A stretch of 25,326 nt of DNA from Candidatus Thorarchaeota archaeon. Its GTDB lineage: Archaea > Asgardarchaeota > Thorarchaeia > Thorarchaeales > Thorarchaeaceae. Both the position numbers and the translations under genes were made by a program. Numbering within the stretch: position 1 is the first letter of the stretch; every line of letters begins with the position of its first letter. The notes under the pieces were generated by a model. It saw only the letters and a list, made by a program, of their open reading frames with translations. It made no database searches and had not been told where the DNA came from. Positions 905 to 23,583 of this stretch are shown here, one piece after another. The stretch is from assembly GCA_016839605.1 (NCBI GenBank), contig JAEOTX010000154.1, positions 1-25,326 on the forward strand. Reading direction: 5' to 3'.

Positions 905-1315
905 ATGTCACAGAAAGGCGAACCAATGTACCGCGGTCACAAGCTCACTGACCTAGTTCAGATGAACATGGACACACTCATTGAGCTGCTCCCCTCACGC
1001 CGCAGAAGGACCCTCAAGCGAGGCCTCCCGCCCCGACAGAAGAAGCTCCTGGTGAAGCTCAGGGCCGCCCGAAAGCAGGCCAAGAAGGGGAAAGAAGTTA
1101 TCGTCAAGACCCACTCCCGCGACATGGTCATTCTTCCAGAGATGGTCGACCTCACTATCGGCGTTCACAACGGCAAGGACTTCGTTCGTGTCAAGATCAT
1201 CCCGCAGATGATTGGGCACCTGTTGGGGGAATTTTCAAGTCCAATGAAACAGGTACGACACGGCAACCCAGGAATCGGTGCTACCAAAAGCAGCGCTTAC
1301 GTGCCTCTAAAGTAA
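905..1315 (+). CDS. rps19: 30S ribosomal protein S19 (uS19, archaeal S19P)
   Basis: Motifs [49 protein letters not shown] and [21 protein letters not shown] at 905 is preceded by a GGTGA RBS at 896-900 and is preferred over TTG 872. Confidence 0.97.
1229..1315 (+). repeat. rps19 3'-end repeat, copy 0 (functional gene tail; putative integration site)
   Basis: gaa ttt tca agt cca atg aaa cag gta cga cac ggc aac cca gga atc ggt gct acc aaa agc agc gct tac gtg cct cta aag taa. Eight further copies lie downstream. Confidence 0.95.
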
Positions 1316-1410
1316 ATCTACGTAAAGACAATCCTGCTCGCTCTATTTGGAAAATCAGTTTTGTGAAGAATGATACAATAAGTTTGATTAACTGCCTCCA
1401 CTCTTCATAA

Positions 1411-2793
1411 ATGGGAGTTCTATTGAATAGGTTCTGGATCAGCCTTCTATGTATCTCACTTATCATGCCTTCCCATCTTCTATCTCTGGAAATGAGTCCC
1501 GCCATGAGTACTCGAAGTAGGTTTAGCACCCTAACTTTCGACTCATCTTCAGATAGTAGTTTGACTTCCAAAAGCTCCATTTCCATAACTAGTGATAGCG
1601 ACTTCGTCAACCAAGGCTGGTCCGGAGATGGAACAGCTGATAGCCCCTTCCTTTTGGAGAACTTGTCCATCATATCATATGATATCTGCGTCTCTGTGAA
1701 GAATGTCACGAAGCACTTTCTCATCCGAAACTCTTACTTCTGGCGTAGAAGACTGGGAAGCACTCCGATGGATGCCTCTGCCATCTTGCTGGAAAACGCA
1801 GCTAATGGCACAGTTGACAACTGTGTTATTGAGAGTCCTGGTTTTGGTATTCTGATACGTAATTCGAGTGAGATTCATCTCATTAACAGTACTTTCTCGG
1901 GCTATGATTTGGGAGGCAGAGGACAGCTGGGTGTTCTGATGGATCACTCATACAATTGCAGTATGGACGGAGATTTCTTCTCTCTGTGGTGGCAGGCTGT
2001 GCATCTAGATTTTTGCTCTAGGATTAGCATGATAAATAGCATTCTTACAGAAAACCATGACGGAGTGGATATGTACTACTGCAACAATAGTGTGTTGATC
2101 AACAATACGATAGTCCAGAATGATAACACCGGAATCCATCTTTCATTGAGCTCTAACAATAGCATCTATGGAAACAAGATTGGAATGAATGAACACCAAG
2201 CTTTCGATAGCAAAGGACCCAATCTATGGGATGACAATCAATCTTTGGGAAATGGGTGGGGCGACTATAGTGGCATTGGCACCTATGCCATCCCAGGGTA
2301 TGCAAATAGTGTCGATCGCTATCCCTGGTTTGCTAGCGACTTCAACTACACAGTACGAGACCAAATTGGACCCACTATACTACATGGCCCCTACATAACC
2401 TCAACTGGACCAGATATCCGTAGGGCGTGGCAGTTCACAGCAACAGCCATTGATCCATCAGGAGTAGATACTGTAATAGCCTTCTATCGCTTTTGTGGAG
2501 AGGAATCTACATCTGTGAAGTTGAACCAATCGAGATACTATACTGACGAATATGAAGGGCGAATTGGTGTACCAGACCCATATAACGGATCCATCGAGGT
2601 CTATTACTGGGCAAATGATAGTCTTGGAAACAGCAGAGATTCAAATGTGGTTCGCTTTTCTTGGAATGGACCTCGTCCTTCAACTCCCCAACCATCATTG
2701 GAAATACTATCAGTTGCAGCTGTAGTAATCACTCCTCTAGTTTTACTCATCGTATTCGTGTTTCTCAAGAAGACTCGAGAGTCACATCGGTAG
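1411..2793 (+). CDS. Secreted NosD/CASH-type right-handed beta-helix protein with C-terminal membrane anchor (cassette 1)
   Basis: Signal peptide; GW.G.GT..SPF.LENL motif; repeated G(I/V)xL...N..I.N beta-helix repeats; GNxWGDY motif; C-terminal hydrophobic helix plus basic tail. Confidence 0.85.
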   Translation: MGVLLNRFWISLLCISLIMPSHLLSLEMSPAMSTRSRFSTLTFDSSSDSSLTSKSSISITSDSDFVNQGWSGDGTADSPFLLENLSIISYDICVSVKNVTKHFLIRNSYFWRRRLGSTPMDASAILLENAANGTVDNCVIESPGFGILIRNSSEIHLINSTFSGYDLGGRGQLGVLMDHSYNCSMDGDFFSLWWQAVHLDFCSRISMINSILTENHDGVDMYYCNNSVLINNTIVQNDNTGIHLSLSSNNSIYGNKIGMNEHQAFDSKGPNLWDDNQSLGNGWGDYSGIGTYAIPGYANSVDRYPWFASDFNYTVRDQIGPTILHGPYITSTGPDIRRAWQFTATAIDPSGVDTVIAFYRFCGEESTSVKLNQSRYYTDEYEGRIGVPDPYNGSIEVYYWANDSLGNSRDSNVVRFSWNGPRPSTPQPSLEILSVAAVVITPLVLLIVFVFLKKTRESHR

Positions 2794-2828
2794 TCATGTG
2801 GACACTCTGATACACAGCGCTAGGCTTA

Positions 2829-2915
2829 GAATTCTCAAACCCAATGAAACAGGTACGACACGGAAATCCTGGGATAGGCGCTACAAAAAGCAGCGCTTAC
2901 GTGCCTCTGAAGTAG
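2829..2915 (+). repeat. rps19 3'-end repeat, copy 1 (intact)
   Basis: Encodes [28 protein letters not shown]. From ATG to stop it has 9 substitutions versus copy 0, all silent. Confidence 0.97.
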
Positions 2916-2940
2916 TTCAAGGTGTATAGATCACGCCTTG

Positions 2941-3936
2941 CTAATACTGTTTCAGTTGCCTACCTATCAAGACAATTGAAACAGCTGCTAAAGCCCAGAG
3001 TATTGCTATTGCTAGAACTTCATTTGGCAAAGGTGTACCGAGCCCTGTTGGTAAAATCGTTTCTGTTATCGAAGGACCCACAAACCACTCAGGATCAGTC
3101 AAAGCACCCACAAAATCAGTCGAAGGACCCACACTATCAGTTGGCACTCCAGTAGGTAGCGCGTCCACCACATGCACTGTAACTGTATCCATTTCTTGAC
3201 TCCAGCCACCATCTATAGTCAGTCGATAGACATGCTCTCCAAGTTCGAGACCATCCACATTGATGGTAAGCGCCTGATTCCATATCCAATTGTGTTGTTC
3301 AAGAAGAAGGCCATCCTTCAATAATACATACCGAAATCCATGGGACGCAGTAGCCCAAGTCACTTCGTGACCAGTTGTCCCGAGTAGGTACCAAAGGTCG
3401 GGAGTGTCGTATAACTGGGGATCACCATCTACAGTCAATACAGTTCCGCCCATTCCAAACTCCAATAAGGGGGACTGAGCAACATTCCCCAACGTGTCAG
3501 TTGCCACATAGAATACCTGGCGAAATGTATCATATACTCTCCCTCCTGTGGAGTTATAGGAAAACCCGAGATTCGCTGCGAACAAGTCCGCTCTGTCTTC
3601 AGTTTGAACCATTGTAGTCTGATCCCATACACTGCTCCCGCGATCAGCATAATGCATTATCACAGAGGCAATTCCATCAGGATCCTTAGCCAGTACCTTC
3701 ACCTCCAGATTGTAATTGTATCTTTCCGCAGCATAATATTTCCGAGGGTAGTATTCCATGGTTGGGTTGCTTCCTTCTCCAGGAACATCCGATTCGTCAG
3801 CAATTGTCAGTGTTGCATTGGAATACTCGGCTGATTCTTGATTTGTTGCAACTGTTTTCATAGATGGAAGGCTAGAGGTTATTACAATGACATGGAGAAT
3901 TAGAAGGAGTGCAGCACCTCTGGTGGTGATTTTCAT
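2941..3936 (-). CDS. Secreted, membrane-anchored hypothetical protein (cassette 2); paralog of 15979-16908
   Basis: Signal peptide after ATG 3936 (the ORF extends to 3960) and a C-terminal TM helix. Shares IADESD.PGEGSNPTMEYYPRKYYAA and LYDTPDLWYL.G.TGHEVTW with the 15979-16908 product. Confidence 0.85.
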   Translation of the reverse strand: MKITTRGAALLLILHVIVITSSLPSMKTVATNQESAEYSNATLTIADESDVPGEGSNPTMEYYPRKYYAAERYNYNLEVKVLAKDPDGIASVIMHYADRGSSVWDQTTMVQTEDRADLFAANLGFSYNSTGGRVYDTFRQVFYVATDTLGNVAQSPLLEFGMGGTVLTVDGDPQLYDTPDLWYLLGTTGHEVTWATASHGFRYVLLKDGLLLEQHNWIWNQALTINVDGLELGEHVYRLTIDGGWSQEMDTVTVHVVDALPTGVPTDSVGPSTDFVGALTDPEWFVGPSITETILPTGLGTPLPNEVLAIAILWALAAVSIVLIGRQLKQY

Positions 3937-4032
3937 TCTTAATGTACCCTCCACACCCATCGAATAGGGTACTATTGAAATTAAGTTTGCGTTCTTTCAG
4001 CTAAACTGGAATATTGAATGAAGGACATGTGC

Positions 4033-4113
4033 TCAAACCCAATGAAGCAGGTCCGACATGGCAACCCGGGGATAGGTGCAACCAAGAGCAGCGCTTACGT
4101 GCCTCTAAAATAG
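4033..4113 (+). repeat. rps19 3'-end repeat, copy 2 (intact)
   Basis: Encodes [26 protein letters not shown]. From ATG to stop it has 10 substitutions versus copy 0, all silent. Confidence 0.97.
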
Positions 4114-4136
4114 TGAACTGCGCCAGTGCGTGATAG

Positions 4137-4174
4137 GCACCCCTTTCCTTAAATTTGTTTGAAACTAATGTATG
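4137..4174 (+). promoter_or_regulatory. Putative promoter module shared with 9078-9115
   Basis: gcacccctttccttaaatttgtttgaaactaatgtatg, 30/38 identical to 9078-9115. Contains a TATA-like TTAAAT about 60 nt before the start codon. Confidence 0.5.
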
Positions 4175-4193
4175 GATTGTTTGAAGCAATTCA

Positions 4194-4982
4194 TTGAGGG
4201 GAACCGGTAACTTGTCAAAGGAGTATATAGTTGAAACAAAAAACCTGTCAAAGTCATTTGGAAACATAAGAGCGCTTGATTCAGTCAATTTGTCGATAAA
4301 GGAAGGTAGTAGGTATGGTTACTTAGGTCCAAACGGCGCAGGCAAAACAACCACGATACGAATACTGAGTGGTCTTCTTGAATGCACTAGTGGAGATGCC
4401 ACAGTTTGCGGATATGATATTCATTCTGAGAATAAGATGATCAAACGCCACACAGGTCTTCTTCCTGAAACAGCAGGTCTCTACTCGAAGCTCTCAGCGT
4501 TTGAGTTCCTTGAGTTCATAAGTGCATTATATAGAATGCCATCAGATGAAGCACATTCCAGGATAAGCAAGCTTCTCTCGACACTGGGCTTAGAGAGTAG
4601 GCAGAACGATGCGATAGAAACCTTCAGTTCGGGGATGAAGCAAAAAGTACTCATTGCCTCAACTCTAATCCACGATCCGCAACTTGTCTTTCTCGATGAA
4701 CCTACAGCATATCTTGATCCCGCAATGAGTGTCCTGGTAAAGGACCTTATACTTGCCCTTTCGAAGCAAACTAATACCTCATTCTTCATCTGTACTCATC
4801 AAACAAGCTTTGCGAATGATGTCTGTGATGTCATTGGGATTCTAGATAATGGTAAGCTCTTGATTGAGGGTCCTACACAGGATATTATCAAGAGCTTTGA
4901 TGCTGATAACTTAGAAGATGCATATGTGAAATTGGTTGGAGGAGAGGTAGACAAAGAGCATTTGCTTGATTGGAGGGGCTAG
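4194..4982 (+). CDS. ABC transporter ATP-binding protein (ABC-2/drug-exporter type; cassette 3)
   Basis: Walker A GPNGAGKTT, signature FSSGMKQK, Walker B VFLDEPT, H-loop CTH. The true start may be TTG 4212. Confidence 0.95.
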   Translation: MRGTGNLSKEYIVETKNLSKSFGNIRALDSVNLSIKEGSRYGYLGPNGAGKTTTIRILSGLLECTSGDATVCGYDIHSENKMIKRHTGLLPETAGLYSKLSAFEFLEFISALYRMPSDEAHSRISKLLSTLGLESRQNDAIETFSSGMKQKVLIASTLIHDPQLVFLDEPTAYLDPAMSVLVKDLILALSKQTNTSFFICTHQTSFANDVCDVIGILDNGKLLIEGPTQDIIKSFDADNLEDAYVKLVGGEVDKEHLLDWRG

Positions 4983-6625
4983 CAGGATTGAGCCAGTGGA
5001 AAGCCATCGCCATAGCTGATTTCTATGCAAGTACGACAAGATTCAGAGGGCGCAGAAGGGAGTTCTTCATTATATTTCTCTCAATAGTCCTCATCTGGGC
5101 TTTTGTCATTGTTCCTTTTTTAGTCGGATTCCTTTTTGATAATTATCCTTTCCTTGAAGCTTTGGCCCTCGTTAATCCAATTGGATTAGTGAGAGTAGTT
5201 TTATTGGCAGTCTTATTCATCATCATAACATATCCTTCCTCCTCCGCGCTCCAAGAGTACAAGTTCCGCGATTGGGAACTTATTCTCAGCTGTGATGTAG
5301 ATACGAAACAAATACTCGCGGGAAAATTCATAGGTAAGCTGCCATCCTTCTGTCTGCTTCTACTTGCTTTGCTTCCATTCCTGATTTCGTTCCTCGATGC
5401 AGCATTTCGAATTTCACTCGCAGGCCAGCTATTAATCTATGCAGAGATCACAGCTTTTTCCATCTGCACATATGGATTGTCAATTGTCATTTGGTCGGGG
5501 ATTCAAGCCAGACTCAACCAATCATTACGGGGCGATTTCTATGCTAAGGTCATTTCAGTTGCGCTCATACTACCGGTTGCTTTTGCTTATGGACTAATGG
5601 CTTTCTTAGAGCAACTGACAGGAATAATGGAGAGTGGACTCTTACTTTTACTTCCGTCAACATGGTCTGGTGACCTTGCAGCTTGGATCATCCTTCAAAA
5701 CAATGCGTCGATATCCCCATCCGCGCTCCCGTTAGGTCCTGAGCCTTTGACGATTCTCTTGGGATGTTATGGACTCGGCATCCTATTCATTGGTTTCTTT
5801 TTCACTGATAGAGTATTCACCATTGCATTAGGCGCTAGGCTAGAAAGTCATAAGACAATGGGAAAGGAGAATTTCTTCCTGAGATTCGTTAGAAGGATTT
5901 GGCCTGGCTATTGGGGATCGTTGGTTGCAACGAGTTTCAAACACATCTATAGAAAGCCAGAGAACAATGGGAAGATAGTGTATGCATGTGCGGCATCCAT
6001 TCTGCCCGTACTAATATTCCCAATTCTCGCTATTTCAGCTCCTACAAAGCCACCACCTGACTTTGTCTTATTATTCAGCTTCCTGTCGATGCTTATGGTT
6101 TTCCCGCTAGTAGGCGCGTTAATGTTTGGAGGAATTGGTTTCTTTGAGAACAAGTACCAGCTTTGGGTGATCCAAGATGCTCCGGATGGAGTTAAATTAT
6201 TCACAACAGGTCGCCTTGCTGCTTATGCTGTATCTGCGGCTTTTCTAGCGGCAGTACCCACAATTGGGATTGGTATCTTTTACTCATCTCAACCCTTAGT
6301 TGCGGTCATCCTCTTTGGCTGTGCATTTGCGCTAACAATGGCCGGGACTCTTCAAGGGATGGGCATCGCATCCATCAATCCCGCATATGAAGATGAGATA
6401 TCGCCTCCATTGAACATCTTGGTCACATCAGTTACTGCATGGGGGCTACCATTTGTATTGCTTTTCGTGGGTCTTCCTTCTATCTCTCCAATCATCAACA
6501 CTTATTTCTCCGGCGCTATTGCTTTGCTCTTAAGCATAGTACTCTCGATTATTCTTCCCTTGTTATTAGTAGGCCTTGTTTTATTCTATATAGGCATGAA
6601 GAATCTGATGAGAACGAGCAAGTAA
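4970..6625 (+). CDS. Multi-pass membrane protein, probable ABC exporter permease (cassette 3)
   Basis: 551 aa with many hydrophobic helices; overlaps the ABC ATPase stop codon. Confidence 0.8.
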   Translation: MEGLAGLSQWKAIAIADFYASTTRFRGRRREFFIIFLSIVLIWAFVIVPFLVGFLFDNYPFLEALALVNPIGLVRVVLLAVLFIIITYPSSSALQEYKFRDWELILSCDVDTKQILAGKFIGKLPSFCLLLLALLPFLISFLDAAFRISLAGQLLIYAEITAFSICTYGLSIVIWSGIQARLNQSLRGDFYAKVISVALILPVAFAYGLMAFLEQLTGIMESGLLLLLPSTWSGDLAAWIILQNNASISPSALPLGPEPLTILLGCYGLGILFIGFFFTDRVFTIALGARLESHKTMGKENFFLRFVRRIWPGYWGSLVATSFKHIYRKPENNGKIVYACAASILPVLIFPILAISAPTKPPPDFVLLFSFLSMLMVFPLVGALMFGGIGFFENKYQLWVIQDAPDGVKLFTTGRLAAYAVSAAFLAAVPTIGIGIFYSSQPLVAVILFGCAFALTMAGTLQGMGIASINPAYEDEISPPLNILVTSVTAWGLPFVLLFVGLPSISPIINTYFSGAIALLLSIVLSIILPLLLVGLVLFYIGMKNLMRTSK

Positions 6626-6988
6626 GGATGGAACGAAGCTAGCTCCGAATCCAAGCGGTTTGCAGAACCTAAGGGATGATTGCTCGAATTAGAGGCAATC
6701 CTGCTAAAAGGAGGGAGCAACGTGGAGTCATGTTACCATATGATTGGGCTTTGATATTAAGGTGAAACCCTACCTCGGGTACGACGTGAAATATGGCGTG
6801 AAGTGAAATGAGGAAACGAAAGAGCTGAATGGCCTTTGGTTCTCCGTCTACTCCGCCAGGTACCCAGGCACTTGGTATGTTTGGCTCAAGGAGTCACTCG
6901 ACCAGATTGCGACCCACATCCTTGACAAAGACATACTGAAGTCAAAGACTTAACTATCGTATTTTTTGGGGAGCCTAGTCAAGAACCG

Positions 6989-7004
6989 TTGACCAATTGG
7001 TCAA
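6989..7004. promoter_or_regulatory. Perfect 16-bp palindrome, candidate operator
   Basis: TTGACCAATTGGTCAA is its own reverse complement and lies in a ~600 bp non-coding stretch. Confidence 0.45.
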
Positions 7005-7224
7005 TGACCCTAGGATTATATCCCTTCGCGACATGCTTAGACACATGGAGTCGATGTAATCTCGCAGAAACTTGGAAATTACAATATTGTACTAATTCCT
7101 AGTAAAGTAGGATTACTCTTGTATATCGCCTTGAGAACTTAGCTTTAGATTTCACATGATTGATTATTTGGTCGTACAATAGAACCTATTCCAGACAACC
7201 GAGAGGTTTGATCTCAGTTGTTAG

Positions 7225-7279
7225 TTTTCAAATCCGATGAAACAGGTACGACAAGGCAACCCTGGTATAGGCGCTACCA
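7225..7279 (+). repeat. rps19 3'-end repeat, copy 3 (3'-truncated)
   Basis: Encodes [18 protein letters not shown], then similarity stops about 6 nt before the stop codon of the convergent ORF at 7286. Confidence 0.92.
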
Positions 7280-7285
7280 GCGGGG

Positions 7286-8125
7286 TCACATGTAAGGCAT
7301 GTAATCACGCCGTTTCCCCAATTTCTCTGCAATCAAACCGCCACCTAGCAAAGGTGGGATGATATAAACTGGACCAAAAATCACCAATCGAAGAACTAGA
7401 GGAATTGAGGGAGTAGCTAGCCAGCTCACAAAGGGAACAGCTAGCAAGCCCAGAAGATATACCCAAGCAAGTATGAGTGGCATACTGAAGAAACATCCTA
7501 ATCCTACAATCCAAAACAATCTTCTGAACCTGAAATTATCGAGTCTTCTCCGAACGTAGTAGAAGAAGAATCCAGACATACCAGTGATGATAGTCCAGGT
7601 GATAATCTGTGTGGGTTCCCATACTCCGAGGCTCACCAACACCACACACAGCACAAGCGCAGTGACAAGCGACAAAGAAACTAGCAGAGTCTTCCCTCTA
7701 TTCCACTCAGGGACTGGCAGGCTCTGACCTGACCTATGCTCACGTATCAGGTTTGTGATTCTATATGCTGGGTTAGCCTTGATTTGAATCTCAATAATCT
7801 TAGCTCCTTCAGCGAAATCCTGAACCTCCAAGAGCTCCTTCAATCTTTGTGGAGCTTGATTCCTGCTGAGAGTCCTCCTTTCTATCTCTTCATTAGTGTC
7901 CACAACACACGTTTCAAGTAGGGTAGCAGTTGCTCCAAGAGAGCCCTCCATGAATCCCCCCTCATTGAGATAGTCCCACAACTCCTCTGCAACGCGAGAA
8001 TAGAGTTCTCCGTCCCACGATTGTTTGCTCCACTCTTCCACAAGGGCATATAGCGTTCTCGGGGACTTGCTCATCTTGTGGCTATTCGGGGATTCTTCCG
8101 TTGGGTTCGGTTGTGCATTCTCCAT
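7286..8125 (-). CDS. Hypothetical membrane protein (soluble N-terminal half, ~4 C-terminal TM helices; cassette 4)
   Basis: 279-aa ORF with ATG start and a hydrophobic C-terminal half. Confidence 0.75.
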   Translation of the reverse strand: MENAQPNPTEESPNSHKMSKSPRTLYALVEEWSKQSWDGELYSRVAEELWDYLNEGGFMEGSLGATATLLETCVVDTNEEIERRTLSRNQAPQRLKELLEVQDFAEGAKIIEIQIKANPAYRITNLIREHRSGQSLPVPEWNRGKTLLVSLSLVTALVLCVVLVSLGVWEPTQIITWTIITGMSGFFFYYVRRRLDNFRFRRLFWIVGLGCFFSMPLILAWVYLLGLLAVPFVSWLATPSIPLVLRLVIFGPVYIIPPLLGGGLIAEKLGKRRDYMPYM

Positions 8126-8372
8126 CCTAAGCGCCCAACTACTAACCTCTCTCGATAGACTAATCGTATAGAATACTTTTAAGCTATTTTCTTATTCGAC
8201 AATGACGCATAACATAATTTAGCTTACTCTAGTTGAGTGCTGATTCCGTATCTTCCATGACAGTCATAGGATACACCTTTCACAAATACATAAGTTTTCA
8301 ATTTACACTCATTTGGTAATCACACAAGTGAGTAGGGCTAATTCGATTATGTATTGTGAAGGATATGTGCGC

Positions 8373-8398
8373 GAGCGTGTGACAGGCCCGCAAGCTGG
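8373..8398 (+). repeat. Second repeat family, copy A (ERVTGPQAG-encoding)
   Basis: gagcgtgtgacaggcccgcaagctgg, 22/26 identical to 12651-12676. All 4 mismatches are at third codon positions. Confidence 0.7.
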
Positions 8399-8577
8399 CA
8401 CATTTTTCCTTTCAAGAAGGATATCATTCTTTGTCGCCTATGATAAGAGATACAATGACTCACGCTCACCGAGTGCAGGATGTTTCGTTGGCGTAAGGCG
8501 TGGCGAAACGCCGTTATACTCTTAAGGAAGTATGATTCACCATAGTTACTTAACTCATTATGTGGGGATTTTAAGAA

Positions 8578-8886
8578 ATGCAGGAACAGATGTTTGTAAT
8601 ACCTATTCCGCCTCTACTTGCTCTTGGGTTTCTGATCGGCATCATATTACTGGTTCTCGGCTATCGAGAGGAATCTGACCTAACGAGACGTCATCATCTA
8701 ATGGGTTCAGGTGTAGTAGTCATAGGCATTATGATTCCAATCACTCCACTTAGCTGGTATGGCTATTGGATAGTGACCAGGGGGCTGGTGCTGGGGCTTG
8801 TTGAAATCGTTATTATTGCTGTTGCCCTGATCGTTGGTATCCTTCTCGTGTACAAAGGTGTCAAGACTTACTCGGGACCTCAATAG
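8578..8886 (+). CDS. Small membrane protein (3 TM; cassette 4)
   Basis: 102 aa with three hydrophobic segments and an ATG start. Confidence 0.75.
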   Translation: MQEQMFVIPIPPLLALGFLIGIILLVLGYREESDLTRRHHLMGSGVVVIGIMIPITPLSWYGYWIVTRGLVLGLVEIVIIAVALIVGILLVYKGVKTYSGPQ

Positions 8887-8952
8887 AATACCCGCGCTCC
8901 TCTGGCAGAGTATTTTCTCAGGCAAGCTGGATTGTTCGCTCAATTATTTAAC

Positions 8953-9036
8953 TTCTCAAATCCTATGAAACAGGTCCGACATGGCAACCCGGGGATAGGT
9001 GCAACAAAAAGCAGCGCTTACGTGCCTCTGAAGTAG
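8953..9036 (+). repeat. rps19 3'-end repeat, copy 4 (intact)
   Basis: Encodes [27 protein letters not shown]. From ATG to stop it has 9 substitutions versus copy 0, all silent. Confidence 0.97.
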
Positions 9037-9077
9037 AATACGGACACTGTAGTTTTCTATTTGAGAAGGGCGCTTAT

Positions 9078-9115
9078 GCACCCTTATTCTTAAATTCGCT
9101 CAGAACTAATGTATG
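9078..9115 (+). promoter_or_regulatory. Putative promoter module shared with 4137-4174
   Basis: gcacccttattcttaaattcgctcagaactaatgtatg; TTAAAT lies 60 nt upstream of GTG 9150. Confidence 0.5.
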
Positions 9116-9149
9116 ACGCCTTCAATCTGCTTAACCTGGGAGTGGTTAT

Positions 9150-9884
9150 GTGAAAAGGCGTAAAAAATTTGCAATCGTATATTTAGTCTGTATGCTGGCG
9201 GTTCCTGTTTCTGTTGCAGCGAATAATCAAGGTCTAAGATGGGTGGGAGAAGTTGGAAACCAATTTGAGTTCTCTTTTACACTCATTCGAAATACATCTT
9301 GTTTCTCCCCAGTATTTTGTGAAGAACTGTGCATAGAAAACGAAGCTATGTATATGGAGATAGACTCCCTCTTACCAATACCCGATAACCTTCAATTCTT
9401 TGAAGAGATACCATCACCTGAGGTTTCATTATACTATAAGAATGGCACAATTCTAAGTCTTTCAGATTTCATGATGATGTTTCCCCAGATTGGTAAGCAG
9501 TTCATATTGCCTGTCGGCAACTGGCACCTTCTTACCGCATTGCCATCAAATGCGACCACTACCACAACTACCATCACTACCACTGCAACCACCGGTAACT
9601 TCGAATCGACTCAAATAGACAATTTAACTCATTGGGGTTGGCTATGGTCGTTCTCAGACTCTCAAACCCAGCAGGAAGGAATTCACGCATACTATAAAGC
9701 AGATGGAGTTCTTGGGTACTATACAAGAAGCATTGTTAGTGACACGGAATTAGTGACAATTTCATTCATCCGACTGAATCCACCTGATCCAGTTCCTCCA
9801 GCAATCGGAATCATAGAGCTTGGCATAGTAATTGGGGGAGTGACTGCAGTGGTTGTCATTGTTGTAATGAAAAGAAAGACGTAG
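9150..9884 (+). CDS. Secreted membrane-anchored protein, 'ANNQGL' family paralog 1 (cassette 5)
   Basis: Signal peptide, AANNQGLRWV, YMEIDSLLPIPD, ILPVGNW, a Thr-rich tract and a C-terminal TM with basic tail. Confidence 0.85.
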   Translation: MKRRKKFAIVYLVCMLAVPVSVAANNQGLRWVGEVGNQFEFSFTLIRNTSCFSPVFCEELCIENEAMYMEIDSLLPIPDNLQFFEEIPSPEVSLYYKNGTILSLSDFMMMFPQIGKQFILPVGNWHLLTALPSNATTTTTTITTTATTGNFESTQIDNLTHWGWLWSFSDSQTQQEGIHAYYKADGVLGYYTRSIVSDTELVTISFIRLNPPDPVPPAIGIIELGIVIGGVTAVVVIVVMKRKT

Positions 9885-9917
9885 AGAATTGAATTAAGAA
9901 ACCTCAGTTGACATCAG

Positions 9918-10001
9918 TTTTCAATTCCAATGAAACAGGTACGACATGGCAACCCTGGTATAGGCGCTACAAAAAGCAGCACTTACGTGCCTCTGAAGTA
10001 G
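9918..10001 (+). repeat. rps19 3'-end repeat, copy 5
   Basis: Encodes [27 protein letters not shown] (A>T in the core). Confidence 0.97.
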
Positions 10002-10095
10002 ATCTGCGGGTTTCTTAAGCCCCCCATCTTTTCTCATCAACTGACAAACAGCCTGCCAGCACTCTCTCTCAATACGTTTAATAGATGACTATTCT

Positions 10096-10869
10096 GTGCG
10101 CTCCTCGACTTCACATGGAGGGGCAATGATGTTCTGGAACTTGAAATTGAAGACTCTATTGGGATCTTTTTTTATGGTATTCTTTTTGCTTTCACAAGTT
10201 ACTTGTGCGGCAGCCGCAAACAACCAAGGTCTAGAGTGGGGCATCGATGTGAGTGATCGTATCGACTATGATATAGAGATAGAGTTTCGTAATTCGACAC
10301 TAGATTTTGAGATAGATGACGGGATGTATCTGATTATTGATAACCTACCTGTCATCAATGATGACATCATTGGCCTTTCGGAGTTGTGCCTTCCAACGAT
10401 GGTTTTGAACCACTACACGACATATTGGGAGAATGAAACTCCCATGGACTTTTTCTGGGAGAGATATGTGAATATGGAACCGGTGGATATACTTCCCATT
10501 GGTAACTGGACTCTGATGACTCAACTGTTGGAAGACGCCACACCGACAGCGGATATGACCCAAAATTCTTCGACCTTGAGTTTCACAGTCTTGAACCTAC
10601 CAAACCCAGGCAATGAACTGACTACGATCTTTTCGAAGACCGATGGTATGCCTGTATATCATCTTTACAACGTAACATGGGGAATGGACACAACTATCGT
10701 AGTAGAGCTAGAGAGAATTCTTCCGTCAACAACCAGCTCCATTCCAGTAACTACCTCTGGTTCAACGAGCGCTCCACCACCTGGCAATAACACTATCCCC
10801 ATGACACTAGGAGCTATTGCTGTAGCTGTAGTAGTCATTCTGATGTTGGTCTTTCTACGTAGAGGATAG
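10096..10869 (+). CDS. Secreted membrane-anchored protein, 'ANNQGL' family paralog 2 (cassette 6)
   Basis: AANNQGLEWGI, YLIIDNLPVIND, ILPIGNW, a Ser/Thr/Pro linker and a C-terminal TM. The true start is probably the downstream ATG (~10126) after GGAGG. Confidence 0.85.
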   Translation: MRSSTSHGGAMMFWNLKLKTLLGSFFMVFFLLSQVTCAAAANNQGLEWGIDVSDRIDYDIEIEFRNSTLDFEIDDGMYLIIDNLPVINDDIIGLSELCLPTMVLNHYTTYWENETPMDFFWERYVNMEPVDILPIGNWTLMTQLLEDATPTADMTQNSSTLSFTVLNLPNPGNELTTIFSKTDGMPVYHLYNVTWGMDTTIVVELERILPSTTSSIPVTTSGSTSAPPPGNNTIPMTLGAIAVAVVVILMLVFLRRG

Positions 10870-10932
10870 ATACCACACGGCAACCCGGGGATAGGTGCAA
10901 CGAAAAGCAGTGCTTACGTGCCTCTGAAGTAG
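10867..10932 (+). repeat. rps19 3'-end repeat, copy 6 (5'-truncated)
   Basis: tag ata cca cac ggc aac ccg ggg ata ggt gca acg aaa agc agt gct tac gtg cct ctg aag tag. [18 protein letters not shown] is intact and abuts the stop of the upstream ORF. Confidence 0.95.
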
Positions 10933-11086
10933 ATTTACTGGTTTCTTAGTTTTTTTGATGAAAAGGGGCTTTATGAACGTTCGAGCACAGGATGTTCCGC
11001 GAAGCCCTCCTTCAAGCTTCTATTTCTGTTAACGAAGAACCTGCTTGAAATATCGGATTCTGTAGAATGTGAGCGCAAAATTTGGT

Positions 11087-11779
11087 TTATTCTCTTCTGA
11101 GTACTGCCAGCACCATTAGAATTACTACAGTGCCGGCCATGACCATTCCTGCAATTCCTAGTGGTGAATCAAATGGGAATGGCAAAGTTACTCTTTCAAC
11201 CAGTGAAATCCTGCGTAGGCCATCATAATACTCTCTAACGATCCTTATGTAAGATGTATGAAGTACTCCCGTTGTCCTCACGTAGATATCTGCGAGGGTA
11301 TCTGTTCCTGATTCATGGAAAACCGTGAAATTGTATCCAATGAGGTAAGGTGTGTTGATAATGTCTTGAGTCACGTTTTCCTCAGGTTGATTTGACCACT
11401 GTCCTTCCCAGATATTCACAATAAGGCCCCAGTTGCCAACTGGAAGTACGTCCCAACTAGAAGACCCCTCGATTTCGGTTCCATTTTCATAGAACCGCGA
11501 TGCCCCAACTAAGCGCGAAAGGTTTCTCATTGCGGTGATATCATCTGGGATGCTTGGAAGACTATCGATTATAATGTAGAAATTCTCCTCTCTAGGACTG
11601 GTTTCATTTTGATTTTGTATTGTAAACTCTCCGAAATCGTGATAGTCAAATCTACTCCCGATTGTGACACCCCAATACAGACCCTGATTATTTGCAGCAC
11701 TCACTGGGGTTACAACAATGCACAGAACAAATAGTATAGCCATCAATTGAGAGAATAGACTCTTGGACATATGTCGCAC
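11087..11779 (-). CDS. Secreted membrane-anchored protein, 'ANNQGL' family paralog 3 (cassette 7)
   Basis: AANNQGLYWGV, YIIIDSLPSIPDD, YENGT, VLPVGNW and a C-terminal TM. Confidence 0.85.
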   Translation of the reverse strand: MRHMSKSLFSQLMAILFVLCIVVTPVSAANNQGLYWGVTIGSRFDYHDFGEFTIQNQNETSPREENFYIIIDSLPSIPDDITAMRNLSRLVGASRFYENGTEIEGSSSWDVLPVGNWGLIVNIWEGQWSNQPEENVTQDIINTPYLIGYNFTVFHESGTDTLADIYVRTTGVLHTSYIRIVREYYDGLRRISLVERVTLPFPFDSPLGIAGMVMAGTVVILMVLAVLRRE

Positions 11780-12160
11780 CTCAACTTACGAATCTGTCAA
11801 TGTTCCTCTACCTAGATATTGATGGCTCTCTGAAACTATAAACATTTGTTCCCAATTCGCTTGACAATGGCGACTGCAATGACTGTGTTGTGCAGAGAAA
11901 GGAGGGTGCTGGAACAAGAGAAACCAGCTACTATAGATCTTCACTTAGCTACACAAAGTGATGATTACGGCTTCAAAGGATAAGGATAGAGAGAAAGCGC
12001 TCAGCAGCAGCTGTGAATCCATTAGAATGGATTCCTAACGAGGATGTAACCCTCTACGTAGGATTGTGATGTGTTCTCGTCCAGAAGAATCAACCTTACG
12101 TTGCTCCGATGCCTATTGGTCCAGCTAGTGGTACATTCCTTAATCGCTCAGCAGTCATAA

Positions 12161-12619
12161 ATGCGGATTGCCTTCAATGAGTATTTGAGGGACAATAGAT
12201 TGCCTTGGTGGCCGCAGGTTATTGTAAGACCAAGAGTTCGAATTGTAATGCCCAACCTTGGACTACCCACTTGTCCGCCCAAAGCTGCGGTGTTCAGCGT
12301 TGTAATTCTTGCGGTCCTTTTTGTATTGGGAGGCAACATCTATACACTGATCATGACTCCTCCGCCAATTGCAGGCTTCTCAAATGGATTGCCAAGACTC
12401 TTTGCACCTGGGCTTGATGCCCAGCTCAGCATAGAGGGCATCGTGGCTTCAGTTGTGGCTTTTATTGGTGTTCTGGGACTTAGTCTGATCTACTACTCTT
12501 CTAGATACGTCTTCACCCCTAGCGATGCAACCCGCTTGATGATACTCGGTATGATTCTCACTGGAGTAGCATTCCTCACCTACAGTTACATGTACGCAAT
12601 CAAGATACAAGTGACCTGA
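12161..12619 (+). CDS. OST3/OST6-family oligosaccharyltransferase subunit, OSTC/DC2-like (cassette 7)
   Basis: 152 aa, 3 TM. LFVLGGNIYTLIMTPPPIAG and QLSIEGIVASVVAFIGVLGL match the eukaryotic OSTC/DC2 pattern (GGIIYD.I.EPP..G ... QY..EGL..S..F..G.LG) from recall; no search was run. Confidence 0.75.
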   Translation: MRIAFNEYLRDNRLPWWPQVIVRPRVRIVMPNLGLPTCPPKAAVFSVVILAVLFVLGGNIYTLIMTPPPIAGFSNGLPRLFAPGLDAQLSIEGIVASVVAFIGVLGLSLIYYSSRYVFTPSDATRLMILGMILTGVAFLTYSYMYAIKIQVT

Positions 12620-12650
12620 TCTAAGCTCCTGCAACTCATATGCGCTGCAC

Positions 12651-12689
12651 GAGCGCGTGACAGGACCTCAGGCTGGACCTTACGCCTAG
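12651..12689 (+). repeat. Second repeat family, copy B (ERVTGPQAGPYA*)
   Basis: gag cgc gtg aca gga cct cag gct gga cct tac gcc tag; intergenic; matches 8373-8398. Confidence 0.7.
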
Positions 12690-12787
12690 TGCAGAATCTT
12701 TGTCGTCTTTCTAGTACGTATGTCAGCCCAACGGCTCATTTATCTAAATACGCCTATTGGATTGGCACCGAGGACGGGTTGATTGCA

Positions 12788-13438
12788 ATGACCAGCGATG
12801 ATCTCCACAACGATTTATACGGCGTGAATCCGAGAGTCATAGCTGCGATAATGGGTGTCTTCACACTATTGACACCTTATGGCTATCTGCCTAGTTGGTG
12901 GGCTCTTGGGTACCCTTTTGTATACCCAGAGCCGGGCTTTATATACTCCCTCCTCTGGGCCTTTAGCTCCCGTGCCGGGAGTGTGGGACTTCACAACTAT
13001 GTCGTCTACAACCCTGCTCTCCTTTGGGCCACGCTTCCTCTCAGCATATGCAATGTCATCTTTGCTTTGAAAGTCGTGAGGTACTATCAGGACAGAACCA
13101 GCAAAGACAGCGTCTTAAGATGGGCAATTGTTGCATTTATCGTACCTATCCTTGCTCTGTTTGTCCAGGGGGCAATCTGGATTGTAATCGGAGCACTGTT
13201 CGATCCCACTATAGCGTTTGGAGCAGGTTTTCAGCCATATTTCGGCCCCATTCCAATTCAGATTGCAGTAGGACTATTCATTGTGTACCATATCCCAGCC
13301 CCAGAACTAGTCACTCCATGGACAGCCCCCGAGAGAGATGAATCATGGTGGATAGAAGAAGATATCGAAGAGTCACATTTTGCAGAGCTCTTCATCACAA
13401 TGGAAGAACTCGATGAGATATACAAGATGTGGGACTGA
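12788..13438 (+). CDS. Hypothetical membrane protein with acidic C-terminal tail (cassette 7)
   Basis: Several TM helices. ATG 12788 is preferred over GTG 12689. Confidence 0.75.
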   Translation: MTSDDLHNDLYGVNPRVIAAIMGVFTLLTPYGYLPSWWALGYPFVYPEPGFIYSLLWAFSSRAGSVGLHNYVVYNPALLWATLPLSICNVIFALKVVRYYQDRTSKDSVLRWAIVAFIVPILALFVQGAIWIVIGALFDPTIAFGAGFQPYFGPIPIQIAVGLFIVYHIPAPELVTPWTAPERDESWWIEEDIEESHFAELFITMEELDEIYKMWD

Positions 13439-13485
13439 CTTGTTTTGGAATTGCACAAGCTAGACGGAGCTGTATCGGGTCATTC

Positions 13486-13776
13486 TTACAGCGTTGCTGA
13501 GCCTCCCTCTGGCAAAGAACGAATTTGGATTATGAGGTCTATGGTTTGAATGGTTGTCGAGAGTAGGTAGGTCTCTAGAGTGAGAGGGGAAATATGATAA
13601 AACAGGAATGAAACGGATGGGATTAGAAGCAGGAAGGATGCGAGTTGCCAGAAGATGAAACATGCAATACACGTATAGATTCGGCCTCTCTTGTCCTTTA
13701 CAGCAACTCTACCAATTGCATAGGGGAGGGCCAAAACGAGAATGCTAGGCGGATCGATGATAACGAGGATACTCAA
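13486..13776 (-). CDS. Small hypothetical membrane protein (cassette 7)
   Basis: 96-aa hydrophobic ORF; start uncertain. Confidence 0.45.
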   Translation of the reverse strand: MSILVIIDPPSILVLALPYAIGRVAVKDKRGRIYTCIACFIFWQLASFLLLIPSVSFLFYHISPLTLETYLLSTTIQTIDLIIQIRSLPEGGSATL

Positions 13777-13898
13777 ATCTCAAACCACGTTATGATATAC
13801 ACCTTTTCTCGCCAAATGATTTTCGAATCATGGAATCACACTTCTGTAAGTTTGCAATCATACCGCTATTACTCGTCCTTTTTTGCCACTGTCTAAAG

Positions 13899-13982
13899 TT
13901 TAGCAACCCTATGAAACAGGTACGACACGACAACCCGGGGATAGGTGCAACCTAGAGCAGCGCTTACGTGCCTCTAAAATGA
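13899..13982 (+). repeat. rps19 3'-end repeat, copy 7 (decaying)
   Basis: Encodes [26 protein letters not shown], with G>D and K>TAG. The first Ser is encoded by AGC instead of TCA. Confidence 0.96.
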
Positions 13983-14058
13983 TGTCAAAGCAATAATAGC
14001 CAATATCAATTTGCACCTATGTGGATTTCTTGCAATGTTCCATCTCATTCGAGTTGTT

Positions 14059-14976
14059 TCATTCCCTCTTGAGATAAATCGCAATTCCCAAAGCTAGACA
14101 AATCATGGCAACTAGAGTAGTCACGAGTATTAGGTCATGTCCATTAGCACTTGGGAATGTTGATACTGAACCACTGAGCTTATGCAAAGTTGCCGAACCC
14201 AAACCTTCGCAAGTCCAAAATGCTCCATCAAACCAAGTTAGACCACTACTAGCTCCATCGGTTTCCATAACACCAATTGATTGTAGAGAGTTCCCATAGG
14301 AATCAGCTGCTTCCCACACATGAATTGTATCCAAGGATGTGCCAGGTTTTGAGCAGTAAAGGACTCCACCCACTTCAACGAAATCCTGAATGTTATTAGA
14401 TGGTGGAGGTCTAATATCATTCAAGCGAATCCTGCTAAGGTCATACACATAGAGATTACTGGTTCCGTAGTTTGCAATATAGACTCGCTCTAGCAGAGGA
14501 AGGATGCATATTCCGCCCCAGTGCACATTACCGATGGAGCTGCTGTTAATCCACTCATCAATGAACAAAAGGTCAGTATCATATCGGACAATCTTGGAGG
14601 GGTTATTGGGAACAAGCCCTCTTTCTGAAAGTGGAATCCAAAGAAGACCATCATAGAAGACCATCCCTCCGCAATGATTGAGCGTGTCGTCGCGCACAAG
14701 TACTTCATCAATATAGGTTCCGTTAGGGAATAGTTTGTATAACCAAGCATCGCCGTTGCCGATCACAGTTTCTGCGGTGCTGATGTAAAAATATTCTCCA
14801 TCGGTTGCGAGCCCCTCTACTTCACTGTCGGTAAACCATGTGAGTTCAATTGAGAGATCGATCTCTGCAATGTTATACCCCGCTCTCTGTGACTGCGTCA
14901 TGTGAGTGATGGAATTACCAGCAGGCAAAATCAGCAGCAATCCGAGAACCAATGGTAATGCTAAACAGCGACGCAC
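14059..14976 (-). CDS. Secreted, membrane-anchored putative beta-propeller protein (cassette 8)
   Basis: Signal peptide; repeated blade-like motifs (EGLATDGEYFYIS, GGMVFYDGLLWI, SGLTWFDGAFW); C-terminal TM. Confidence 0.75.
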   Translation of the reverse strand: MRRCLALPLVLGLLLILPAGNSITHMTQSQRAGYNIAEIDLSIELTWFTDSEVEGLATDGEYFYISTAETVIGNGDAWLYKLFPNGTYIDEVLVRDDTLNHCGGMVFYDGLLWIPLSERGLVPNNPSKIVRYDTDLLFIDEWINSSSIGNVHWGGICILPLLERVYIANYGTSNLYVYDLSRIRLNDIRPPPSNNIQDFVEVGGVLYCSKPGTSLDTIHVWEAADSYGNSLQSIGVMETDGASSGLTWFDGAFWTCEGLGSATLHKLSGSVSTFPSANGHDLILVTTLVAMICLALGIAIYLKRE

Positions 14977-15115
14977 TTCTTACAACCAAATGGAGCTCTT
15001 GATTTGATGTTCATAAGCTTTGCCGCGGGCGATACGCAATCTTGCAACACGTGTTCCAAGAGATAACAAGATTAAGGTGATTGGAGAATCTTCACTGGAT
15101 TAGGGAGGATTACAG

Positions 15116-15880
15116 GTGCCAGAGCGGCCAAGCGAGAAGTACTATCGTGATACAGCAAGATTCTATGACGCATTTGTAGAGCGGCCAGATGAAACCCTCT
15201 ACCTAGAGCTTGCAGAAAGATTTGGATCGCCTATCCTAGAGCTTGCTTGCGGAACAGGAAGAATCACACTCATTCTTGCACAAGCAGGCTACGATATCAC
15301 AGGAATTGAGCTCTCTCCCGAGATGCTTGAGATTGCACAGGAAAAACTGCAGCAACTCCCTGACGATGTCCAATCAAGGGTTTCATTGAATCATGGAGAT
15401 ATGACGAATTTCAAGCTAGACAAGAAATTTGCAATGGTCATCATACCATGGTCTTTCAAATTTCTACTAACAACAGAAGATCAACTTGCGTGTCTTAGGC
15501 AAGTTCGAAAACATCTGGCTGATGATGGCGTATTCATTCTTGATCTCTACCCACGCGAGATAATAGATTTAGATGAAACAGAGAGGTACACTGTAGAGAT
15601 TGATGGGGCCACCATTACAAGGACTTACACCTATTCTACTGACATTCTGGCCCAGACAAGACGCTGCGATGCAACTGTAGACGTGGTTCATTCAGATGGC
15701 AAAGCTGAGCGAGTAGAGACTAAATCTGTTGTATCATTGATCATGCCAAGAGAGGCTGAACTTCTTGTTAGAACTGCTGGCTTTGAGATTGTTGAAGAAT
15801 ATGGTGGAAATGACTTCTCAGAATACACGCCTGATGACTCGAAGAGGGTATTAGTTCTCAAGAAGAAGACCGATAGTTGA
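15116..15880 (+). CDS. Class I SAM-dependent methyltransferase (cassette 8)
   Basis: ILELACGTGR motif I, GIELSPEML, GDM, HL..DGVFILD. Confidence 0.93.
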   Translation: MPERPSEKYYRDTARFYDAFVERPDETLYLELAERFGSPILELACGTGRITLILAQAGYDITGIELSPEMLEIAQEKLQQLPDDVQSRVSLNHGDMTNFKLDKKFAMVIIPWSFKFLLTTEDQLACLRQVRKHLADDGVFILDLYPREIIDLDETERYTVEIDGATITRTYTYSTDILAQTRRCDATVDVVHSDGKAERVETKSVVSLIMPREAELLVRTAGFEIVEEYGGNDFSEYTPDDSKRVLVLKKKTDS

Positions 15881-15889
15881 AGCCAGGTT

Positions 15890-15970
15890 GAGTTTCCGTT
15901 GAAACAGGTACAACATGGCAACCTTGGTATAGGCGCAACCAAGAATAGTGCATACGTGCCTCTGAAGTGA
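15890..15970 (+). repeat. rps19 3'-end repeat, copy 8 (most degenerate)
   Basis: Encodes EF--PLKQVQHGNLGIGATKNSAYVPLK*: 4 amino-acid changes plus an apparent 6-nt deletion. Confidence 0.93.
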
Positions 15971-15978
15971 TGAATTTA

Positions 15979-16908
15979 TTATTGTGACTGACGTTTCCAA
16001 TATACTACAATTGACAAGACAGCGACTGCAATGACTGATACAGATATCAACAATGGCAATATCAGGCCATCCTCATGATTTAGTATTGGGTTCCTATTTG
16101 GTCCAACACTACCAGTTGGTACTCCAGCAGGGAGCTCATTCACAACGTGCACGGTTACATTGTCTATACCTGTGCTAAATCCACCATCCACGGATAATCG
16201 ATAGACATGATCCCCCGAGGGGAGGCCGTCCACATTGATAGTCAAAGACCCGACCCATATGTGCTTTTCAAGAATAAGCCCATCCTTCAATAGCGTATAG
16301 TAGAACCCACCGTACACAGTTTCCCAGGTTACTTCATGACCTGTAGACCCCACTAAATACCATAAATCAGGAGTATCGTATAAATCACCATCATAATCAG
16401 CAGTCCATGTTATCTGAGCCAGTCCAAATTCCATAATGGGCGACTGTGCAACGTTTCCGAGTGTGTCATTTGCTATATAATACACCTGGCGATAGGTATC
16501 ATAAAGATACCATCCTGTAGAGTTATAGAAGAATTCGAGTGTGGTTGTGAAAATGTCACCACTGCCAGCACTACGTGTCATCGGAGTCTGATTCCAATCA
16601 CTGCTTCCTCGATTGGCGTAGTACATAATCACCGAGTCAATACCGTCAGGATCCCTTGCCAGGACACTCACAGTAAGAGTGTAGTCGAAGTTGGCAGCAG
16701 CATAATATTTCCGGGGATAGTATTCCATGGTGGGATTGCTACCTTCACCAGGAATGTCAGACTCATCAGCAATCATCCATTTCTCATTATAGAGCTCAGC
16801 TGATTGGCTATCTAACAGCAATTCATTTGATGAAGGGTAATTGGAGCTGATTGCAACAACATGTAGCATTAGAAAGAGGATTAGGACGCTTCTGGCATCA
16901 ACTCTCAT
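15979..16908 (-). CDS. Secreted, membrane-anchored hypothetical protein; paralog of 2941-3936
   Basis: Long shared blocks with the cassette-2 protein; signal peptide and C-terminal TM. Confidence 0.85.
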   Translation of the reverse strand: MRVDARSVLILFLMLHVVAISSNYPSSNELLLDSQSAELYNEKWMIADESDIPGEGSNPTMEYYPRKYYAAANFDYTLTVSVLARDPDGIDSVIMYYANRGSSDWNQTPMTRSAGSGDIFTTTLEFFYNSTGWYLYDTYRQVYYIANDTLGNVAQSPIMEFGLAQITWTADYDGDLYDTPDLWYLVGSTGHEVTWETVYGGFYYTLLKDGLILEKHIWVGSLTINVDGLPSGDHVYRLSVDGGFSTGIDNVTVHVVNELPAGVPTGSVGPNRNPILNHEDGLILPLLISVSVIAVAVLSIVVYWKRQSQ

Positions 16909-16910
16909 GC

Positions 16911-18245: not shown

Positions 18246-18285
18246 TCAGCTCACCATTATCAACATTATGACCTCATTTCGATAT

Positions 18286-18312
18286 TATTCTAATCCTAGA
18301 GAGATTAGAATA
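18286..18312. promoter_or_regulatory. 10-bp inverted repeat between divergent genes
   Basis: TATTCTAATC-7 nt-GATTAGAATA. Confidence 0.4.
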
Positions 18313-18409
18313 TAGCATTGCAGAGGCGCTTTGCGTCCACATTTAATTTATCTGCGATTTTATCAAATAGTATCTATTCAGGAATGCTGTATTTCTAGGT
18401 GGACAATGG

Positions 18410-23500: not shown

Positions 23501-23583
23501 AAAGATGAATTTGATGAATGTCTAGGGTCTATGCGTAGTTCAATGCCCTTTCTCAGAGTAAGGAAGTTCCTATATGGGGAGGT

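Follow-up and report, generated by a model that had tools for sequence, protein, structure and literature searches.

How does the 3' end of an essential ribosomal protein gene come to differ in codon usage from the rest of the gene, with the change falling where a repeated sequence begins? The question is raised by the window analysed here, the entire 25.3-kb contig C84 of a Thorarchaeota MAG (G000, 80% complete), which holds the single full rps19 copy of that genome (Table 1). A first-pass annotation had proposed that the working end of rps19 was supplied by an incoming cassette, making the gene a chimera with a crossover near the 5' end of the repeat. Our analysis leads to a fuller reading, in which rps19 is a composite gene rewritten by arriving blocks in a process probably started by a homing endonuclease, and we put moderate confidence in this explanation as a whole.

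The gene is solitary. It lies outside the ribosomal-protein cluster and is preceded by genes for a phosphoglucosamine-mutase-like and a TPR protein. On contig C49 (1346-11141), the main cluster of ribosomal-protein genes in this genome begins at L22 and has no S19, which indicates that rps19 has been displaced from its usual L2-L22 position in this lineage. A contig 99% identical to G014 (L062) carries a 556-nt insertion (836-1391) between the TPR gene and rps19 that is absent in G014, and related sequence occurs also in L070. Genome G004 has two full rps19 genes (C1:1263512-1263919 and 1318584-1318991) in opposite orientation and 55 kb apart; at silent sites one is like that of G008 and the other like that of G006, and the pair may be either a chimeric assembly or a true duplication.

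Table 1. Features of the rps19 locus in the window (positions of the whole stretch).
Feature	Position	Strand	Remarks
rps19 (archaeal uS19)	905..1315	+	136 codons + stop; Pfam Ribosomal_S19 E=5e-30
rps19 body, codons 1-108	905..1228	+	GC3-rich, synonymous sites conserved; probably inherited with the lineage
rps19 working tail, codons 109-136 + stop	1229..1315	+	repeat D1 copy 1 (1230-1316); putative exchangeable end piece
displaced tail copy 2	2830..2917	+	frame intact; 9 silent, 0 amino-acid changes vs consensus
displaced tail copy 3	4029..4115	+	frame intact; 7 silent, 0 replacement changes
displaced tail copy 4	7223..7279	+	ends after ~57 nt, at ...GCTACCA
displaced tail copy 5	8952..9037	+	frame intact
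displaced tail copy 6	9916..10002	+	2 amino-acid changes
displaced tail copy 7	10868..10933	+	without first ~21 nt
displaced tail copy 8	13897..13984	+	decayed: Gly to Asp, Lys to stop
displaced tail copy 9	15886..15971	+	most decayed; 10 replacement changes
inserted cargo region	1316..18339		8 cassettes, 0.9-3.2 kb, between tail copies + 2 genes after copy 9

The codon-usage break itself is robust. Both hand counts of the first-pass annotation were reproduced: five A/T-ending and no A-ending codons among the 28 codons at 1145-1228 (on recount 14 C, 9 G, 5 T and 0 A), and 16 A/T-ending codons, 10 of them A-ending, among the 28 at 1229-1312 (10 A, 8 C, 6 T and 4 G). GC-ending codons thus number 23/28 before the boundary and 12/28 after it (Fisher p=0.005), and A-ending codons 0/28 and 10/28 (Fisher p=0.0007). 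A contrast this large between the last two 28-codon windows is seen in only 3 of 2456 long ORFs for GC3 and 5 of 2456 for A3 (~0.1-0.2%). In a maximum-likelihood change-point scan of all 136 codons, the best single split in GC3 fell after codon 108, between GHLLG and EFSSPM (nt 1228/1229), with GC3 falling from 0.76 before it to 0.43 beyond it and a permutation p=0.027 for a split anywhere in the gene. The repeat (family D1) starts at 1230-1232, and the switch, which had been placed at its 5' edge, indeed lies there to within one codon, about 3 nt earlier.

Which side of the boundary is unusual was less well foreseen. The notion of a chimera stands, but the compositional oddity is the body, and the tail resembles the genome at large as well as the cassettes. 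With amino acids taken into account, 12 codons of the tail are GC-ending against 12.5-14.1 expected from genome or ribosomal-protein usage, whereas the body has 82/108 against 53-57 expected (P<1e-5). GC3 averages 0.46±0.05 over the genome and is 0.50 in the ribosomal cluster, 0.38-0.50 in the cassette genes and 0.43 in the tail, and by this measure the whole rps19 gene ranks among the top 3 of 2456 ORFs. The raised GC3 of rps19 is common to family-level relatives. As the suggested check against the other ribosomal protein genes of G000 showed, these have a uniform GC3 of ~0.50.

Downstream of rps19, from 2830 to 15971, lie eight further copies of its last ~84 nt, all in the orientation of the gene. 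Each begins with TTYTCAA, at the codon for Phe-110, and runs to the stop codon, except that copies 4 and 7 are partial. Recurrent truncation points were unconvincing among the tail copies, with just two of them cut at ...ACCA(AA). Between the copies lie cassettes whose products are, according to Pfam, mostly predicted membrane or surface proteins (beta-helix/NosD, ABC transporter, OST3-like, methyltransferase and unknowns), and conserved host flank resumes at ~18340, as judged against G009, G002 and G005. The distal cassettes (the methyltransferase and the start of copy 9) occur also in G002 and G005, where copy 9 is present as a short remnant after the shared methyltransferase gene; the proximal cassettes are unique. 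Unknown, apparently membrane or surface proteins form paralogous cassette families in the window (9150-11779; 2941-3960 and 15979-16908); three relatives of 230-257 residues occupy cassettes 5-7, and a cassette pair of 339 and 309 residues is 60% identical. Two cassette genes of the window terminate where a tail copy begins or a few nucleotides ahead of it (10869/10868 and 15880/15886).

The displaced copies bear the mark of a coding past. Taken together, the untranslated copies of the clade show 128 differences from the consensus that are silent and 52 that replace an amino acid; at ~19 silent and ~59 replacement sites, this corresponds to a replacement-to-silent rate ratio of ~0.13 and indicates that they were shaped as coding sequence. 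Replacement changes grow with distance from the gene, from 0 in the nearest copies to 10 in the farthest.

To place the break in a wider context, we compiled an rps19 set of 40 related genomes and 80 metagenome loci. The arrangement of rps19 with co-oriented tail copies separating inserts was found also in G005, G009, G014, G015, G016, G020, L064, L068, L070 and L072. Array-free relatives, in which several kb of downstream sequence hold no extra tail copy, had been named as a case that would refute a cassette origin should they have the same shift; they lack it, with a mean body-to-tail GC3 drop of 0.05 (14 loci) compared with 0.24 in array-bearing loci (n=10). The significance of this contrast (Mann-Whitney p=1e-4) should be read as overstated since the lineages are related. 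In G000, G014, L064 and L068 the change-point scan favours a split at codon 107-108, with significance confined to G000 and G014; in G020 it favours codon 103 (p=0.004). A significant break at codons 107-109 occurred in 0/17 loci without a tail array. Since the break accompanies arrays and is missing from array-free loci, the shift is tied to the arrays and is general neither to rps19 nor to ribosomal genes.

Two pairs of relatives reveal states before and after insertion. G009 and G014 are 85% identical around rps19 and 94% identical over a 2-kb cassette block, which follows the working tail in G009 and displaced copy 2 in G014; relative to G009, G014 has an extra 1.2-kb cassette between rps19 and that displaced copy. 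An independent JGI contig matches the G014 array at 99.3% identity, so the array is not an assembly artefact. The sole gene of this newest G014 cassette (L041 2100-3203, minus strand) ends in frame through a decayed rps19 tail remnant (...TKNSVNLPLN). In the second pair, G020 has 3.65 kb inserted relative to L074, in which the site is empty; beginning precisely at Phe-110, the third tail copy of G020 is native in sequence (FxVTNKPVKH) and so is the flank downstream of it, and the working tail of G020 is another variant. Together with the GC3 contrast to array-free loci, these two pairs support the proposal that the tail was cassette-supplied and rps19 is a chimera. For G000 itself, the working tail would have been replaced in the same way.

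The position of the crossover varies. In G020 the displaced copy is native from Phe-110 onward, which places the crossover at the repeat 5' edge. Between G009 and G014, near-perfect identity of the tails sets in no earlier than about position 55, with a mosaic stretch of 55 nt ahead of it, which indicates that crossovers are not always at the edge; the position is thus close to the 5' end but not fixed. The working copies of G000, G009, G014 and G015 encode Ser-Ser-Pro where almost all displaced copies encode Ser-Asn-Pro, and judging from these sequences an exchange point just after this codon would fit in that clade.

What could drive such insertions was addressed by several searches. Phage_integrase had no match in six array-bearing genomes (G000, G005, G009, G014, G015 and G020; 74-93% complete) and Resolvase none in five (74-93% complete), results that apply to known recombinase families in incomplete genomes; nearly all control genomes gave matches. 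A XerA-type recombinase was likewise not found in the six Phage_integrase-negative genomes, which are 74-93% complete. Recombinase or nuclease families had no Pfam match among the window cassette ORFs, nor did they in the first cassettes of G009, G014, G015, G016 and G020; a batch Pfam scan of 46 cassette ORFs covered the commonest families only, so that single recombinases could pass unseen. When six tail strands were folded as DNA, z-scores ranged from -0.96 to +1.3 and no attC-like hairpin was significant. The tail 5' boundary carries a 5-nt inverted repeat, TTTCA-N7-TGAAA, with a 7-nt spacer that differs between copies. With a degenerate tail pattern, no tail-bearing element was found in viral contigs, and only 10 loci, of Thorarchaeota type, in GTDB genome contigs; no free element was among these, all being apparently chromosomal rps19 loci or arrays (3 new loci left uninspected). 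No tail-bearing element was found elsewhere in the G000 genome, and guide-like matches of 14-mers from any tail copy to the rest of that genome were at chance level.

Several candidates were set aside in the course of these searches. A 15-18-nt tail match was found where contig C253 begins, in a housekeeping setting upstream of Pus10. A NERD-like ORF of 185 aa in the first cassette of L072 has a weak Pfam match (E=0.001) and was dropped as a driver, since neither tails nor RNA genes adjoin the homologues in G018 and G023. The window also has an IS605-type TnpB element (22206-23547), an insertion relative to G009, of a family with just 2-3 copies in the G000 genome, and TnpB homologues lie directly upstream of rps19 in two Thorarchaeota contigs (L073 1968-3220 and L074 6692-7940). 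As a tail-targeting driver TnpB was rejected, the guide derived from its flank being unlike the tail; no RNA genes were found near the other copy of the window TnpB.

A different kind of candidate occupies the first slot in relatives. In L070 a 707-residue ORF, convergent to rps19, ends ~28 nt after the rps19 stop, and its C-terminal half has two LAGLIDADG-like motifs. The family to which we assign it (P0003) consists of 29 clusters, and all members with an organism name are labelled Thorarchaeota. A single-sequence AlphaFold model of P0003 was unusable (pLDDT 37), and a model of the family C-terminal domain built from a 25-sequence alignment reached pLDDT 91.7 and pTM 0.89. Every top Foldseek match of this domain model was a LAGLIDADG enzyme, and VIA-align superposed it on the TliVMA endonuclease domain with Z 17.1 and an rmsd of 2.7 A over 188 residues, followed by PI-PfuI (Z 15.8), I-Tsp061I (15.4), I-DmoI (14.5) and PI-SceI (13-14). 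The modelled domain shows the double alpha-beta-beta-alpha-beta-beta-alpha fold, including a pair of LAGLIDADG helices. An acidic residue is retained in both motifs, as an invariant Asp in motif 1 (GLSDGH) and as Asp-Gly in the consensus of motif 2 (LWxEDGxF). Sequence comparison is less telling. Pfam LAGLIDADG_3 matches 3/25 family members weakly (best E=1.8e-4), the member on G000 contig C150 scores 20.8 bits against a cut-off of 22.5, P0003 itself matched no curated sequence model, and sequence and profile searches with it returned nothing from the PDB. On the strength of the model, the predicted fold of the P0003-family domain is that of a LAGLIDADG homing endonuclease. The N-terminal part of the family enzyme has a helix-turn-helix region.

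The placement of this family is recurrent. Convergent to rps19 and ~26 nt after its stop, the gene occupies the first slot in L070, L071/L158, L063 and L157, and eroded module remnants are found in the same slot in G021 and L068. In L158 the module has three genes, coding for a 307-residue protein, the endonuclease and a 1048-residue protein, and it is flanked on one side by the working tail, of PM type, and on the other by a decayed tail of native type. The GC3 drop is small (0.06-0.07) in the endonuclease-module loci L071 and L063. A search with the family found no P0003-family endonuclease gene or remnant in the window; G000 has four family members, all on other contigs and two of them beside tRNA genes. 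On contig C106 (~34925-35100; L162 7926-8101), three CRISPR-like repeats spaced 67-68 nt apart adjoin a LAGLIDADG family gene fragment and a tRNA-Glu gene. No tRNA-half repeats were seen beside the other G000 family members at the sensitivity used.

We propose that codons 1-108 of rps19 are the lineage's own and that the last 28 codons would come from a pool of interchangeable tail modules, which travel with accessory-gene blocks. A block landing directly behind rps19 would bring a new working tail, and the former tail and older blocks would be shoved downstream, untranslated and decaying. Tails would be mostly untranslated passengers, with selection acting only while a tail is the working end. 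In this way the protein sequence would be kept while codons drift to the genome norm, giving a sharp break at the repeat edge. As the initiator of the process, a homing endonuclease is more likely than an integrase: a LAGLIDADG-fold enzyme probably cuts a sensitive tail variant, and the break would be repaired by homologous recombination from a donor with a resistant tail and its cargo. Homing-endonuclease-seeded repair is thus, in our judgement, the most likely driver, on the grounds of fold and position in relatives; cleavage of rps19 and copying by repair are inferred, and may also underlie the movement of the nuclease-free cassettes in this window. The enzyme may have been lost from these cassettes, they may exploit breaks produced in trans, or they may move simply because tails recombine with one another by homology.

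One rival holds that nothing was replaced in this lineage, that a vertically inherited tail merely escapes the GC3 constraint on the body, and that the coincidence with the repeat edge is fortuitous. Synonymous divergence lends it some substance. Compared with G009 and G014, codons 1-60 of rps19 have 0.15-0.17 synonymous differences per codon, less than half the neutral level of 0.39-0.41 observed for the neighbouring TPR gene in the same comparison. The tail differs from close relatives by 0.36-0.54 per codon, which equals the neutral TPR level, and a recent swap in G000 is therefore not required. Tail exceeds body divergence by 2-4x in G009-G014 and G000-G014, but the tail is also faster in the array-free pair G008/G004a (0.25 vs 0.03-0.06), so that part of the contrast reflects strong synonymous constraint on the body, which is also the compositionally odd part. 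At 84 nt, the tail offers too little sequence for tree building. Yet array-free relatives hold the GC3 of their tails near that of their bodies, the break meets the repeat edge in several separate array-bearing lineages, and G014 and G020 give a direct view of insertions that displaced the tail. We regard this account as very improbable.

Two further accounts accept replacement and differ in what performs it. In one, which we regard as rather unlikely, cassettes loop out as circles and re-enter by a single crossover in the ~84-nt tail through homologous recombination that needs no enzyme of their own, the tail being a portable homology patch and the endonuclease genes mere cargo. That neither the window nor most first cassettes have a recombinase or nuclease speaks for it, as does the mosaic 5' part of the tail in G009 versus G014, which suggests crossovers within the repeat; in the tail pool, ~61% of informative site pairs are incompatible. 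However, the distance-based PHI test on 21 tails was not significant (p=0.31), and as a recombination substrate 84 nt of 80-90% identity is short. Looping out also leaves the origin of the first duplication unexplained, along with the recurrence of a LAGLIDADG gene in the first slot at no fewer than five loci and as eroded remnants in two more. The other account, improbable in our view, is site-specific integration by an unrecognised or trans-encoded recombinase with the tail start as attachment site, as in an ICE/IME- or tycheposon-like element. It would accommodate the sharp common 5' boundary, the identity block ending at the stop codon and the boundary inverted repeat, and streptococcal elements use the 3' ends of rpsI and rpmG in a like manner (PMC5357655, PMC4701971). 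Against it stand the absence of Phage_integrase or Resolvase matches from the array-bearing genomes searched, the variable spacer, and the lack of a tail-bearing element in viral contigs or elsewhere in G000.

The closest parallel to homing-driven rewriting is found in yeasts. WHO elements at FBA1 of Torulaspora and Lachancea (Coughlan et al. 2020, PMC7282813) resemble the rps19 arrays in targeting the 3' part of a highly expressed essential gene, in replacing the working 3' end on arrival while the old end is pushed downstream, so that fragments and elements accumulate with the newest next to the gene, and in leaving the target a chimera. The two ends of the yeast chimera evolve differently, as those of rps19 may also do. 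The P0003 family, like WHO, has a LAGLIDADG fold related to intein endonucleases. The differences are also plain. The host here is a haploid archaeon without meiosis; the WHO enzyme combines an intein with a zinc finger, whereas the enzyme here has an N-terminal helix-turn-helix and is accompanied by two further large genes; surface-protein cargo without a nuclease makes up most of the present cassettes; and the duplicated piece is 84 nt instead of several hundred. The placement of the endonuclease beside the new gene end, as in WHO, is absent in the window but present in the relatives that carry the family in the first slot. A second eukaryotic case is that of the Allomyces atp6 type in fungal mitochondria, where a free-standing endonuclease ORF at the end of an essential gene brings a substitute C-terminal coding piece; these are single insertions in organelle genomes, without multi-cassette cargo arrays.

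Among prokaryotic systems, the streptococcal ICE/IME and cis-mobilisable elements accrete in tandem at the 3' ends of rpsI, rpmG and rplL by means of tyrosine or serine integrases (PMC5357655, PMC4701971). They share with the present arrays the restored 3' end of a ribosomal gene, tandem arrays bounded by direct repeats and some passengers without an integrase, but they depend on integrases, of which none was found in the array-bearing genomes searched here. Integrons, which have been reported also from archaea (Ghaly et al. 2022, PMC9668308), have small promoterless cassettes without mobility genes that are stacked at one site with the newest nearest the insertion point. The rps19 arrays are alike in this, but have no IntI and a boundary repeat that is the end of a coding gene with no significant hairpin, and insertion rewrites an essential gene. 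In Asgard archaea, the mobile element HeimM2 of Ca. Heimdallarchaeum (Wu et al. 2022, PMC8813620) carries a homing-endonuclease-like gene and is inserted between a tRNA gene and the only 16S rRNA gene; it likewise lies beside an essential gene, but its target is an RNA gene, and no replacement gene end or tail array is described. In the full-text literature we found no description of rps19 tail arrays or of gene-end-replacing homing elements in archaea.

A broader hypothesis can be ventured, although we consider it doubtful. Thorarchaeota may practise an integrase-free form of gene capture, in which the ends of essential genes such as rps19 would be docking sites, a lineage-specific family of LAGLIDADG enzymes would cut them open, tails recoded at silent positions would serve as resistance alleles, and nuclease-free cargo would ride breaks made in trans. 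If so, an arms race between cutter and target would be under way, and homing elements would be the engine of an integron-like pan-genome of surface proteins.

In conclusion, a step in codon usage at the edge of a repeat offers a simple signature with which to find essential genes whose ends are rewritten by mobile DNA. As a chimera, a ribosomal protein gene can combine parts that are inherited vertically with parts that circulate horizontally, which bears on the use of such genes as phylogenetic markers. If homing is the driver, a mechanism of a few yeasts and fungal mitochondria would operate also in the archaeal group closest to eukaryotes, and the P0003 family would represent a new family of long-site DNA cutters. 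It would further account for the occurrence, in several Asgard genomes, of gene arrays interrupted by fragments of essential genes, and accessory genes would be stacked in integron-like fashion without an integrase.
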